Shown: positions 50,101-59,100 of the stretch, in pieces
Layout: the number at the start of each line of letters is the position of its first letter
Numbering within the stretch: the stretch's first letter is position 1
Assembly (NCBI RefSeq): GCF_013315695.1
Contig: NZ_CP054353.1
DNA length: 64,000 nucleotides
Direction: 5' to 3' (one strand)
DNA from: Escherichia coli
GTDB taxonomy: Bacteria; Pseudomonadota; Gammaproteobacteria; Enterobacterales; Enterobacteriaceae
Position numbers: made by a program

Positions 50101-53100
50101 GGCAAAATTGTTTTCATCGGTTTGTACATTGGTGAACTTGTTATTGACGATCCGACCTTCCATAAAAAAGAGACAACGTTACTCAGCAGCCGCAATGCCA
50201 CACGGGAAGATTTTGCGTTGGTGATTGAACTGATGCGCAGCAATAAAATTCACGAAAATTTAATGAAAAACCAGGCATTCAATTTCTTTAGTGTTGGCGA
50301 AGATTACCAGCGTAACGTTGTAGAAAATAAAAATATGGTCAAGGGTGTGATCACTTTTTAAGGGAACAAATATGACAACTGTTTATGTCAGTGAAGAAAA
50401 TTTAAAATCACTGGTGCACCACAAATTACATACCGCCGGGCTGGATACCGACACCACACAACAGGTGACAGATGTTTTAGTACATGCCGATATTACAGGT
50501 GTGCATTCACATGGTGTTATGCGTGTCGAACATTATTGCACCCGCCTTGCTGCCGGAGGGTTAAATAAAGCCCCGCAGTTTAGCATTGAGCAAATTTCAC
50601 CGTCAGTGGCCATTCTCGACTCTGACGACGGAATGGGGCATTCCGCATTAATTAGCGCCACTGAGCACGCTATTAAACTGGCCCAGCAAGAGGGCCTCGG
50701 TTTTGTTAGCGTTAAAAACACGTCTCACTGTGGTGCGTTATCTTATTTTGCAGAGATGATCACCAACAAAGGGTTGGTTGCTATCGTAATGACGCAAACC
50801 GATACCTGTGTGGCTCCCCATGGCGGCGCCGAGCGCTTTTTGGGAACTAACCCCATCGCCTTTGGTTTCCCGGTGGAAAACAGCCATCCGATGATTGTTG
50901 ATATGGCGACCAGTGCCACGGCTTTCGGCAAAATACTTCATGCAAAGGAAACCGGAAAACATATTGGTGAAGGGCTGGCGATAGATAAAAACGGTTATGG
51001 CACCACTGATCCGTATAAGATTGAAAACCTGCTACCTTTCGGCCAACACAAAGGTTCAGGCATTGCACTGGCTATTGATGCACTGACTGGCGTGCTGATG
51101 AATGCGAATTTTGGCAACCATATTGTTCGCATGTATGGTGATTATGACAAGATGCGTAAGCTGGCAAGTTTGGTTATTGCCATCGATCCGAAAAAGCTCG
51201 GCAATCCTGTTTTTGCAAAAACCATGGCGCAAATGGTCACGGAGTTGCATGCCGTTAAACCGGCTCCCGGTATCGAAAAAGTGTTAGCGCCGAACGATCC
51301 GCAAATGCACTACAAAGAAAAATGCCAACAGGAAGGTATTCCGGTTCCGGCAGGAATATTCCATTATCTGGCAGAGAATTAATCACTACTTTTTATTATA
51401 ACGATAGAAAAGCGCTGTATTTATCGTTTCTGTTATATTAACCAGGAGCAGGATATGAAAGCACTTCGTCCTCTGACGGCATCGCTTATGCTGTTAACCA
51501 GTTGTTTATTAATATCTAATACCACACTGGCAAAAATAACATTAAAACTGAGTCATAATCAGGATAAAAGCCATGCTGTCCATAAAGCATTAAGCTATTT
51601 AGCGGATAAAACCAAAGAGTATTCTAATGGTGAATTAGTTATTCGCATTTACCCAAATGCAACATTAGGTAATGAGCGTGAATCACTGGAATTAATGAAC
51701 TCCGGTGCATTACAGATGGTTAAGGTTAATGCCGCATCACTAGAATCATTTGCTCCAGATTACAGCCTTTTCAGTCTGCCGTTCTTATTCCGCGACCGTG
51801 ATCACTATTATCGTGTTCTGCAAAGTGATTTAGGTAAAAAAATACTTAATTCATCAGAAAGCAAAGGTTTTGTTGGTATTACGTACTATGACGGCGGTGC
51901 GAGAAGTTTTTATTCCAATAAACCGATTACAAAACCTGAAGATTTAGCGGGAATGAAAATCAGGGTTCAACAAAGCCCCAGCGCCATTGCAATGATGAAA
52001 GCACTCGGTGGTGTCGCTACCCCGATGGCGCAAGGCGAACTCTACACCGCACTTCAGCAAGGTGTGGTTGATGGCGGAGAGAACAATACCGTTGTCTATT
52101 CCGATATGCGTCACGCCGAAGTCGCAAAAGTCTATTCACGTGATGAACACACCATGGTACCTGATGTGTTAATTATCAGCACCGACGTGTTGAATAAACT
52201 TGGTGATAAAGAGCGCACGGCATTATTAAAAGCAGCCGGTGATGCTGCCAACTTACTGATTTAGTGTATGATGGTGTTTTTGAGGTGCTCCAGTGGCTTC
52301 TGTTTCTATCAGCTGTCCCTCCTGTTCAGCTACTGACGGGGTGGTGCGTAACGGCAAAAGCACCGCCGGACATCAGCGCTATCTCTGCTCTCACTGCCGT
52401 AAAACATGGCAACTGCAGTTCACTTACACCGCTTCTCAACCCGGTACGCACCAGAAAATCATTGATATGGCCATGAATGGCGTTGGATGCCGGGCAACAG
52501 CCCGCATTATGGGCGTTGGCCTCAACACGATTTTACGTCACTTAAAAAACTCAGGCCGCAGTCGGTAACCTCGCGCATACAGCCGGGCAGTGACGTCATC
52601 GTCTGCGCGGAAATGGACGAACAGTGGGGCTATGTCGGGGCTAAATCGCGCCAGCGCTGGCTGTTTTACGCGTATGACAGGCTCCGGAAGACGGTTGTTG
52701 CGCACGTATTCGGTGAACGCACTATGGCGACGCTGGGGCGTCTTATGAGCCTGCTGTCACCCTTTGACGTGGTGATATGGATGACGGATGGCTGGCCGCT
52801 GTATGAATCCCGCCTGAAGGGAAAGCTGCACGTAATCAGCAAGCGATATACGCAGCGAATTGAGCGGCATAACCTGAATCTGAGGCAGCACCTGGCACGG
52901 CTGGGACGGAAGTCGCTGTCGTTCTCAAAATCGGTGGAGCTGCATGACAAAGTCATCGGGCATTATCTGAACATAAAACACTATCAATAAGTTGGAGTCA
53001 TTACCGATTATGTCTACAGCAAAGAGTTGTATATCAAGGCACATTGATGTCTTTATCGCCGTCGGAGCACGTCCGGCGGCGCTATTCACGCTGATCTCCT

Positions 53101-56100: not shown

Positions 56101-59100
56101 TCTGGATGTTCCCGGAAGGAACCCGCAGCCGTGGTCGCGGCCTGCTGCCGTTCAAGACCGGGGCATTTCACGCGGCAATTGCGGCGGGCGTCCCGATTAT
56201 TCCCGTGTGCGTCTCTACAACTTCGAATAAGATTAATCTTAATCGACTGCACAACGGTCTGGTGATTGTCGAAATGCTGCCGCCAATTGACGTCAGTCAG
56301 TATGGCAAAGATCAGGTTCGTGAGCTGGCTGCCCATTGTCGTTCGATAATGGAACAAAAAATCGCCGAGCTCGATAAAGAAGTCGCAGAGCGCGAAGCCG
56401 CCGGAAAAGTTTAAGTCGGCAATCTGTATTTTTGCGGGGAACACTTTCCTGCACGGTATTACTTTAGCCAGTTTTACATGGAGCAAATATGTCACTCAGT
56501 CGGCGTCAGTTCATTCAGGCATCGGGGATTGCACTTTGTGCAGGCGCTGTTCCCCTGAAGGCCAGCGCAGCCGGGCAACAGCAACCGCTACCCGTTCCGC
56601 CGCTGCTTGAATCTCGCCGTGGGCAACCGCTGTTTATGACTGTACAACGTGCGCACTGGTCATTTACGCCAGGGACACGCGCGTCGGTTTGGGGAATCAA
56701 TGGTCGTTACCTGGGGCCGACTATCCGCGTCTGGAAGGGCGACGATGTTAAGCTTATTTACAGCAACCGCCTGACAGAAAATGTCTCAATGACGGTGGCC
56801 GGGCTACAGGTACCAGGCCCGCTGATGGGCGGTCCGGCACGGATGATGTCGCCAAACGCTGACTGGGCACCCGTACTGCCCATTCGCCAGAACGCAGCTA
56901 CTCTGTGGTATCACGCCAATACTCCCAACCGCACGGCTCAGCAGGTCTATAACGGCCTTGCCGGAATGTGGCTGGTGGAAGATGAAGTCAGCAAGTCGCT
57001 GCCTATCCCCAACCATTATGGTGTGGATGATTTTCCGGTCATTATCCAGGATAAACGGCTGGATAACTTTGGTACGCCAGAATACAACGAACCGGGAAGC
57101 GGCGGCTTTGTTGGTGATACGCTGCTGGTTAACGGTGTGCAAAGCCCGTACGTTGAAGTCTCGCGTGGCTGGGTGCGCTTGCGACTGCTGAACGCGTCGA
57201 ACTCTCGTCGCTATCAACTACAGATGAGCGATGGTCGCCCGTTACATGTGATTTCTGGCGATCAGGGATTCCTGCCTGCTCCTGTATCGGTGAAGCAACT
57301 TTCGCTGGCACCGGGCGAGCGCCGCGAGATTCTGGTGGATATGAGCAACGGTGATGAAGTGTCGATCACCTGTGGTGAAGCGGCGAGCATTGTTGATCGT
57401 ATTCGCGGCTTCTTTGAGCCATCCAGTATTCTGGTGTCTACGCTGGTGCTAACGCTGCGCCCAACCGGCCTTCTGCCGCTGGTCACAGACAGTCTTCCGA
57501 TGCGCTTGCTGCCAACTGAAATCATGGCCGGTTCGCCGATTCGTAGTCGCGATATCAGTCTGGGTGATGACCCGGGTATTAATGGACAACTGTGGGACGT
57601 CAACCGTATTGATGTCACCGCGCAGCAAGGAACGTGGGAACGCTGGACGGTACGCGCGGACGAGCCGCAAGCGTTCCATATTGAAGGCGTGATGTTCCAG
57701 ATCCGTAACGTGAATGGCGCGATGCCGTTCCCGGAAGACAGAGGCTGGAAAGATACCGTTTGGGTTGACGGACAAGTGGAGCTGCTGGTTTATTTCGGTC
57801 AGCCTTCCTGGGCGCACTTCCCGTTCTACTTCAACAGTCAGACGCTGGAAATGGCGGACCGTGGCTCGATTGGGCAACTGTTGGTCAATCCGGTACCGTA
57901 ATGGACCAATTCAATGCCCCACAGAGTGGTGGGGCATTGAAAATTACTCAGTATGCAGTCTTCACTGTGTATCAGGTCGAAAATAATCCTGGCAGCATCA
58001 GACTAAGCTGCGGGAAATAACAAATAATTGCCATTACTACAAACAATGCCAGAAACATCGGCAGTAATGGTTTTATTGCCCTGTCGATACTGACCTTACC
58101 AATGCTGCACCCCACAAACAGAATGGTGCCGACAGGTGGTGTGCAAAGGCCAATGGTTAAGTTGAAAACGGTAATGACTCCAACTTATTGATAGTGTTTT
58201 ATGTTCAGATAATGCCCGATGACTTTGTCATGCAGCTCCACCGATTTTGAGAACGACAGCGACTTCCGTCCCAGCCGTGCCAGGTGCTGCCTCAGATTCA
58301 GGTTATGCCGCTCAATTCGCTGCGTATATCGCTTGCTGATTACGTGCAGCTTTCCCTTCAGGCGGGATTCATACAGCGGCCAGCCATCCGTCATCCATAT
58401 CACCACGTCAAAGGGTGACAGCAGGCTCATAAGACGCCCCAGCGTCGCCATAGTGCGTTCACCGAATACGTGCGCAACAACCGTCTTCCGGAGCCTGTCA
58501 TACGCGTAAAACAGCCAGCGCTGGCGCGATTTAGCCCCGACATAGCCCCACTGTTCGTCCATTTCCGCGCAGACGATGACGTCACTGCCCGGCTGTATGC
58601 GCGAGGTTACCGACTGCGGCCTGAGTTTTTTAAGTGACGTAAAATCGTGTTGAGGCCAACGCCCATAATGCGGGCTGTTGCCCGGCATCCAACGCCATTC
58701 ATGGCCATATCAATGATTTTCTGGTGCGTACCGGGTTGAGAAGCGGTGTAAGTGAACTGCAGTTGCCATGTTTTACGGCAGTGAGAGCAGAGATAGCGCT
58801 GATGTCCGGCGGTGCTTTTGCCGTTACGCACCACCCCGTCAGTAGCTGAACAGGAGGGACAGCTGATAGAAACAGAAGCCACTGGAGCACCTCAAAAACA
58901 CCATCATACACTAAATCAGTAAGTTGGCAGCATCACCGACATAATCCTGGGGATTATGCAGCGGAAAACCGCCAACGTAGGGTTTAAGCAGTTTGATTAA
59001 CGGCTGATAATAGACAGGAATGAGCGGTGCCTGCTGGTTGATGATCACTTCTGCCTGCTGATACAACGCATTACGCTTTGTTGCATCAGCCGTTTGTGCC

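Follow-up and report, generated by a model that had tools for sequence, protein, structure and literature searches.

A 64,000-nucleotide stretch of Escherichia coli DNA (contig NZ_CP054353.1 of RefSeq assembly GCF_013315695.1, hereafter the window, whose positions are used as coordinates throughout) carries the genes parC, plsC and ftsP between two oppositely oriented copies of the insertion sequence (IS) IS1. These three genes lie on the strand opposite to that of the neighbouring core genes. The arrangement is very probably a genuine inversion, produced by IS1 activity together with a deletion in a tripartite ATP-independent periplasmic (TRAP) transporter operon, inherited in a widely sampled clinical lineage, and leaving the three genes head-on to replication. 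This high confidence applies to the inversion, the deletion and the head-on outcome; the route by which IS1 acted is graded separately. The locus consists of the following elements.

44333-46552, minus strand: ygiQ
51455-52237, plus strand: truncated dctP, the TRAP solute-binding protein gene, with 261 native codons kept
52238-53005, plus strand: IS1 copy 2, 768 bp, IS1A type, with left inverted repeat GGTGATGCTGCCAACTTACTGAT; its transposase reads towards parC
53006-58169: inverted segment of 5,164 bp with three intact genes, differing by 1 nt from the sister genome AF14
53006-53014: copy of the 9-bp duplication, GATTATGTC, at the inner flank of copy 2, in inverted orientation
53006-53047, plus strand: detached 3' end of ygiS, with codons for D-Y-V (the duplicated 9 bp), then YSKELYIKAH and a stop
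53048-53184, plus strand: native ygiS-parC intergenic region, 137 bp, moved together with parC
53185-55443, plus strand: parC, topoisomerase IV subunit A, 752 amino acids, now head-on to replication
55677-56414, plus strand: plsC, 1-acylglycerol-3-phosphate O-acyltransferase, 245 amino acids, now head-on to replication
56489-57901, plus strand: ftsP (sufI), 470 amino acids, now head-on to replication
57972-58169, minus strand: 3' fragment of dctM (TRAP large permease), the last 65 codons and stop, a pseudogene in RefSeq
58170-58937, minus strand: IS1 copy 3, 768 bp, exact reverse complement of copy 2
58938-58946: copy of the 9-bp duplication, GACATAATC, at the outer flank of copy 3
58911-60512, minus strand: truncated ygiS, of which 58938-60512 is native
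60621-61103, minus strand: ygiV

A preliminary description of the window had placed copies 2 and 3 as an inverted pair around parC, plsC and ftsP. Its coordinates are exact, and the two copies are identical at 768/768 nt. The strands that it gave, plus for the three enclosed genes and minus for ygiQ, ygiS and ygiV, agree with the coordinates of the open reading frames; ygiW, outside the IS1 pair, is also on the minus strand. Both gene fragments that it noticed at the inner flanks are present, the tip of ygiS at 53006-53044 (with the stop codon extending to 53047) and the 3' end of dctM at 57972-58169. It had also called the whole parC-plsC-ftsP segment essential, which holds for parC and plsC; ftsP is not an essential gene.

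The three IS1 copies of the window (a further one, copy 1, is described below) are 100% identical over all 768 nt, copy 2 being the reverse complement of copy 3. All start with GGTGATGCTGCC... and finish with ...GGAGTCATTACC, and their ends GGTGATGCTGCCAACTTACTGAT and GGTAATGACTCCAACTTATTGAT agree at 18 of 23 positions, as imperfect terminal inverted repeats. The length of 768 bp is consistent with that given for IS1 in PMC12428005. The sequence GATTATGTC at 53006-53014 is the exact reverse complement of GACATAATC at 58938-58946, as first described; the match is real and not a reading error. For one pre-specified pair, the probability of a random 9-bp match is 4^-9, or ~4e-6. In two IS1-free sister genomes, AF14 (NZ_OZ546925.1) and AF10 (NZ_OZ546911.1), the 9-mer occurs once, at exactly the junction point in ygiS, where the uninterrupted target reads ...TGCTGTAGACATAATCCTGGGG...; it is therefore a true target-site duplication. 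The remaining pair of flanks, AAAGCAGCC outside copy 2 and GTTGAAAAC inside copy 3, is mismatched. This pair carries no duplication, since the stretch that lay between the two flanks, 1,842 bp of the TRAP operon, has been lost.

The two sisters were found by a search with the enclosed segment alone, from which they differ by 1 nt in 5,155. This sole difference from AF14 is a silent change in ftsP, at 57436. The window and the sisters share identical protein accessions for ParC, PlsC, FtsP, YgiV and QseC. In AF14 and AF10 the region contains a full-length ygiS and an intact dctP-dctQ-dctM operon; ygiV, ygiS, parC, plsC and ftsP follow one another on one strand, and dctM, dctQ and dctP come next on the other strand, in convergent orientation. 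To rebuild the ancestor from the window, 53015-58169 was flipped, both IS1 copies and one of the two 9-mers were taken out, and the missing TRAP sequence was put back. The rebuilt sequence showed 5 mismatches with AF14/AF10 over 19,218 bp. The ancestral co-orientation that had been proposed for these genes is thus displayed directly by AF14 and AF10, and ygiS, parC, plsC and ftsP are co-oriented in the same way in strain 5392 of sequence type (ST) 131, CUVET20-PYO4, EC1 and AF46. The co-orientation extends to ten further contexts with the same ParC allele, a set that also includes an NCTC-type genome in which the segment is still inverted relative to ygiS. No IS1-free relative with the orientation of the window was found among the genomes examined. 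The breakpoints fall at 53006 and 58169, exactly at the IS1 ends, both by BLAST against 5392 and CUVET20-PYO4 and by comparison with AF14 and AF10. These comparisons show that the inversion is derived and recent, and that IS1 ends bound it precisely.

The enclosed segment is single-copy, with 5,428 places in 5,425 genomes. An intact ygiS-parC junction was counted at 80% coverage in 4,052 of the 5,426 RefSeq complete E. coli genomes, a number limited by the sensitivity of megablast on divergent ygiS alleles. It was rejected as a measure of rearrangement. Extra places number only 5 in 5,425 genomes.

Compared with AF14/AF10, exactly 1,842 bp are absent from the window, namely dctP codons 262-327, all of dctQ and ~1.1 kb of dctM. 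Full-length dctP in AF14 has 327 codons; the truncated reading frame, here dctP', continues for 27 nt inside IS1, up to 52264, its last residues before the stop being ...LLKAAGDAANLLI. The deletion inactivates the TRAP transporter. The breakpoint signature had been read correctly as that of an inversion in the preliminary description, and its left breakpoint had been read without this deletion, which is seen against AF14/AF10. The inversion and the 1,842-bp deletion arose on the same branch, after the split from the IS1-free sisters. Insertion of IS1, loss of DNA up to an IS1 terminus, and inversion make at least three IS1-related events on this branch. A microhomology-mediated deletion was considered and dropped. 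Against the ST131 allele, the dctM breakpoint seemed to have 8 bp in common with the end of IS1, namely TCATTACC, and the breakpoint in dctP 5 bp; the true sisters read CATCATTATG/GTTTTC and GCAGCC/GATGA, with different junction-proximal bases. The TRAP island itself is found in only ~1,200 of the 5,426 complete genomes. The dctP gene of EC1 and AF46 (locus 20456-21439) has an internal stop at codon 273, and is intact in AF14/AF10.

Copy 1 stands in place of 10,991 bp of the sister AF14 (NZ_OZ546925.1 2531635-2542625), and lies between AATGCCTTA and TTAATTATT, without target duplication. The loss, which runs through a cluster of lipid-related genes, takes yghS, yghR, an LPS (lipopolysaccharide)-biosynthesis-like gene, a YtfJ-like gene, paralogues of lptF and lptG, and the genes for a serine palmitoyltransferase (spt), an acyl carrier protein, an epimerase and a fatty acyl-AMP ligase. 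It ends in yghO, of which the first ~56 nt are gone. It is the window's second IS1-adjacent deletion. The position of copy 1 and the internal features annotated in copy 2 are as follows.

18851-19618, plus strand: IS1 copy 1, 768 bp, identical to copy 2
52293-52568, plus strand: insA of copy 2, open reading frame
52487-52990, plus strand: insB' of copy 2, open reading frame
52544-52550, plus strand: A6C frameshift motif of copy 2, a -1 slippery site

The element is labelled in RefSeq as an IS1A family transposase with programmed frameshift, and its transposase product matches the Pfam families PF03811, PF12759 and PF03400 (InsA, HTH_Tnp_IS1, DDE_Tnp_IS1).

The orientation relative to replication was derived from MSB1_4I (NZ_LR898874.1; rectal swab, Australia), in which the same structure is found on the reverse strand. 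The record of this 5,278,133-bp chromosome starts at dnaA (plus strand), and oriC lies at ~5.232 Mb, between mioC (end 5,231,928) and mnmG (start 5,232,307). The locus, at 762-772 kb with parC at 767-770 kb, is ~0.81 Mb into the replichore copied in the plus direction. As parC, plsC and ftsP are on the minus strand of the record and ygiS, ygiV and ygiW on the plus strand, the former are head-on to replication and the latter co-directional. The suggestion that parC and plsC are head-on, made initially from the neighbouring genes, thus holds from the position of dnaA and oriC and from the strand. The GC skew is consistent with this, being +0.05 to +0.10 in the segment and -0.02 to -0.06 in the ygiS flank on the plus strand of the window, though such values are confounded by gene strand at this scale.

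In YgiS, the last 10 codons are swapped for 8 codons read from IS1 (GDAANLLI, then a stop), giving 533 amino acids compared with 535; the C-terminus is ...DYVGDAANLLI, where it is normally ...DYVYSKELYIKAH. ParC is wild type at Ser80 and Glu84. Since the ygiS-parC spacer was carried along with parC, any parC promoter inside it is retained. A scan of 52900-53300 for promoters and terminators found neither, with no strong sigma-70 consensus, and was uninformative. The parC gene no longer receives transcription arriving from ygiS, and has IS1 and the TRAP operon upstream instead.

The following route is slightly favoured. One IS1 would have inserted into the TRAP operon and then, transposing replicatively within the same molecule, deleted the DNA beside it. 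A second event of this kind, by the same IS1, would have targeted the opposite strand at the 3' end of ygiS. Replication of the Shapiro-type intermediate would duplicate IS1 and invert the DNA in between, leaving the two 9-bp repeats in opposite orientations, one just inside the donor copy and one just outside the new copy. This intramolecular route is preferred because it needs fewer events, one insertion and two intramolecular events, and because copies 1 and 2 adjoin deletions (10,991 bp and 1,842 bp) that end at an IS1 terminus with no duplication. Terminus-precise adjacent deletions are a classical product of intramolecular IS1 transposition. It is preferred also because replicative transposition of IS1 within the chromosome has been reported (PMC12428005), as have replicative deletions by IS1 (Turlan and Chandler 1995, as cited in PMC12428005).

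The other of the two routes envisaged in the preliminary description is somewhat less probable, and is a serious competitor. Here a separate IS1 would have landed near the 3' terminus of ygiS, generating a 9-bp duplication in direct orientation, and the two oppositely oriented copies would then have recombined through RecA, flipping the 5.2 kb. Both routes predict the observed flanks; by recombination, one copy of the duplication would be moved to the inner flank of copy 2, exactly as found. Identity of 100% over 768 bp is ample for RecA, and with ~40 IS1 matches per chromosome in the lineage, independent insertions are frequent. The rearrangements in CP164765.1 and UGAA01000001.1, which involve the same copies and are described below, are most simply explained by IS1-IS1 recombination. 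However, recombination requires one extra event (two insertions, a deletion and the exchange), and the junction D query found no genome with IS1 in ygiS at an uninverted locus among the 5,426 complete genomes. Reverted genomes would also be expected if the exchange were easy, and there are 0 among the assemblies inspected. In these queries the four junctions of the locus are named A to D, A being dctP'-IS1 and D being IS1-ygiS; junctions A and D were both run against the complete genomes.

Several points weigh against the interpretation preferred here, some bearing on the intramolecular route and others on the arrangement itself. The end product of an inversion-insertion is identical, base for base, to that of insertion and recombination, so that the sequence does not separate the two routes, and with three identical IS1 copies in the window the ancestry of the copies is uninformative. 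No intermediate, in which just one of the TRAP operon and ygiS would hold IS1, was present among the 5,426 complete genomes. An insertion in ygiS first, followed by inversion into dctM and then by a leftward deletion, would be equally parsimonious. The arrangement was judged from assembled sequences; of 24 long contigs, 20 were grouped as similar, and gene order was read in the others. Finally, the head-on assignment comes from record coordinates and the standard bidirectional model. Look-ups of the DctP'-IS1 fusion and of ParC among the longest public contigs gave no pre-inversion state. JAPWXY010000004.1 was considered as an intermediate and rejected, the IS1 in its dctP being an independent insertion at a different site.

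The possibility that the two inverted IS1 copies are real, with the 5.2-kb segment truly in its ancestral orientation and flipped by the assembler, was weighed against the other assemblies. Recombination within the IS leaves the four local junctions unchanged, so the 9-bp signature alone cannot exclude a flipped assembly. The junction sequences being equal in both orientations, short-read data are blind to the rearrangement: inverted repeats that exceed the read length leave the enclosed orientation unresolvable by short reads alone, and a non-inverted genome with two IS1 copies would have the simpler history. A long read, however, need only cross one 768-bp IS1 and its unique flanks to fix the orientation, which is trivial. 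In MSB1_4I, AF3 (NZ_OZ547117.1; blood culture, UK), CP164702.1 and CAXJQQ010000001.1, all of chromosome scale, the order and spacing of the four junctions are the same. The inverted order thus has the agreement of at least four independent assemblies, which are separate submissions, each with private single-nucleotide polymorphisms; the two of known origin come from different countries. Two more concur for three junctions, CP164765.1 retaining A, B and C, and UGAA01000001.1 retaining B, C and D. An assembly artefact is accordingly most improbable.

Only two of the 5,426 complete genomes, MSB1_4I and AF3, have junction A or D, and both are inverted. Public contigs that encode the exact DctP'-IS1 fusion protein, of 269 amino acids, number 667, and those with the exact YgiS-IS1 fusion number 455. 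The difference may point to isolates in an intermediate state, but single-nucleotide polymorphisms in the longer protein, or secondary rearrangements such as that of CP164765.1, could account for it as well. In Broad KTE drafts, the accessions of the two fusion proteins are eight genes apart, which matches the prediction of the inverted map. MSB1_4I differs from the window at 533, 47822 and 58694, and AF3 at three other positions; positions 50277 and 52158 were also compared between assemblies. The base at 47822 is private to the window and is shared by none of the six further assemblies compared. Position 58694 lies inside copy 3; the window and AF3 agree there and MSB1_4I does not, so that the two flanking IS1 copies of MSB1_4I differ by 1 nt.

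That the IS1-parC-plsC-ftsP-IS1 unit is an inserted composite transposon, whose form of two inverted IS1 around a cargo it has, or that the window orientation is ancestral and other E. coli are inverted, has a negligible probability, since AAAGCAGCC and GACATAATC, the outer flanks, do not form a direct duplication, the cargo is single-copy and native at its position in every genome examined, the matches to 53015-58169 in PLSDB are chromosome-sized records or chromosomal fragments, and the IS1-free sisters and all other lineages examined show the opposite orientation. A plasmid-borne segment was likewise rejected: the PLSDB records are of 4.8-5.4 Mb, or are chromosomal fragments of 350-790 kb, and none is a true plasmid. 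Such records appear to be mislabelled chromosomes. Composite transposons of the Tn1681 type also have inverted IS1 arms around a cargo of a few kb. Unlike in these, there is no direct duplication here and the cargo is native core genome in place; the structure is a by-product of the inversion.

The parC-plsC-ftsP flip, of which no description was found in the literature, is a well-resolved new instance of a textbook IS1 rearrangement, every element of which is already known. The intramolecular deletions and inversion-insertions of IS1 (Turlan and Chandler 1995), in the account of them cited in PMC12428005, share with the present case the 768-bp IS1, the 9-bp duplication and the terminus-precise deletion. 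They also share the second, inverted IS1 and the placement of the two 9-bp repeats, one just inside one IS1 copy and one just outside the other. Unlike in plasmid assays, a natural chromosomal event has been fixed here in a clinical lineage, and the replicative route is a deduction.

The locus also resembles inversions made by recombination between IS copies, in having identical inverted IS at both breakpoints and larger IS1-bounded rearrangements in the same lineage. Chromosomal inversions by recombination between inverted IS have been seen in E. coli, in Shigella and in experimental-evolution lines, and are reportedly reviewed in works that PMC12428005 cites, such as Ngan et al. 2024. The present inversion is very small, spanning 5.2 kb within one replichore; it is not symmetric about the axis between origin and terminus, and so changes the orientation of genes to the fork. 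Gene-strand bias is said to have been treated by Rocha and Danchin in 2003. Small natural inversions shift genes from the leading to the lagging strand (PMC11040001; PMC7451550; bioRxiv 10.1101/293571). Compared with other natural head-on inversions, two essential housekeeping genes are flipped here, and the ancestral state, the points of breakage and the causative element can all be identified.

The head-on state persists in every member of the lineage inspected, though the repeats permit reversal, which suggests a small fitness cost. Its persistence in a lineage found at least in Australia and the UK, and in hundreds of public contigs, argues that E. coli pays little for having moderately expressed essential genes in head-on orientation. 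The locus is a clean natural case of a shift from leading to lagging strand for parC and plsC: what caused it, where the two breakpoints lie and what the exact ancestor was are all on record, as are many descendants. AF14/AF10 and MSB1_4I/AF3 form a near-isogenic pair for the study of replication-transcription conflict and of head-on mutagenesis at a clinically relevant drug target.

It is very unlikely that the inversion is not neutral, an altered parC dosage or mutability aiding the spread of the lineage, or that the IS1-bounded unit is mobilisable with its essential genes. If this were true, the head-on placement of plsC and of parC, a secondary fluoroquinolone target that now lies behind IS1 and the TRAP genes, could alter the dosage of topoisomerase IV, and the local mutation rate could rise, according to the hypothesis that head-on genes evolve faster.

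The two 768-bp inverted IS1 copies remain substrates for further rearrangement. In UGAA01000001.1 (GCA_900448625.1), the dctP'-IS1 junction is ~270 kb from the IS1-parC junction (at about 4.27 and 4.54 Mb). Genes of an ETT2-type type III secretion system (spaN side) follow copy 2, and the spaM side with IS1 is found upstream of parC. The arrangement suggests that copy 2 took part in another, far larger rearrangement between IS1 copies. In CP164765.1 (GCA_046047015.1), unrelated DNA with an MtlR-like gene and an ABC transporter takes the place of ygiS next to copy 3, which is a further rearrangement or deletion via copy 3. Independent IS1 copies are present in other lineages: between ftsP and dctM in CUVET20-PYO4; in ST131 strain 5392 beside an ldh-family gene, where a deletion extends to exbB; and, in EC1 and AF46, between yqhC and dkgA, where yqhD is lost. 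The neighbourhood of the locus appears to have been hit repeatedly by IS1.

The alleles of the region form a mosaic. From yqhG to ftsP the window is near-identical to the EC1/AF46 group, and from plsC (~56162) rightwards to at least 63700 it diverges by 1.4-2.7%, with B2-type-like alleles. A boundary of allele import at IS1 was considered and rejected; the identity with EC1/AF46 runs ~2 kb past the breakpoint and drops in plsC at ~56162, a boundary unrelated to IS1. Between ygiS and ygiV, mqsR-mqsA is absent.

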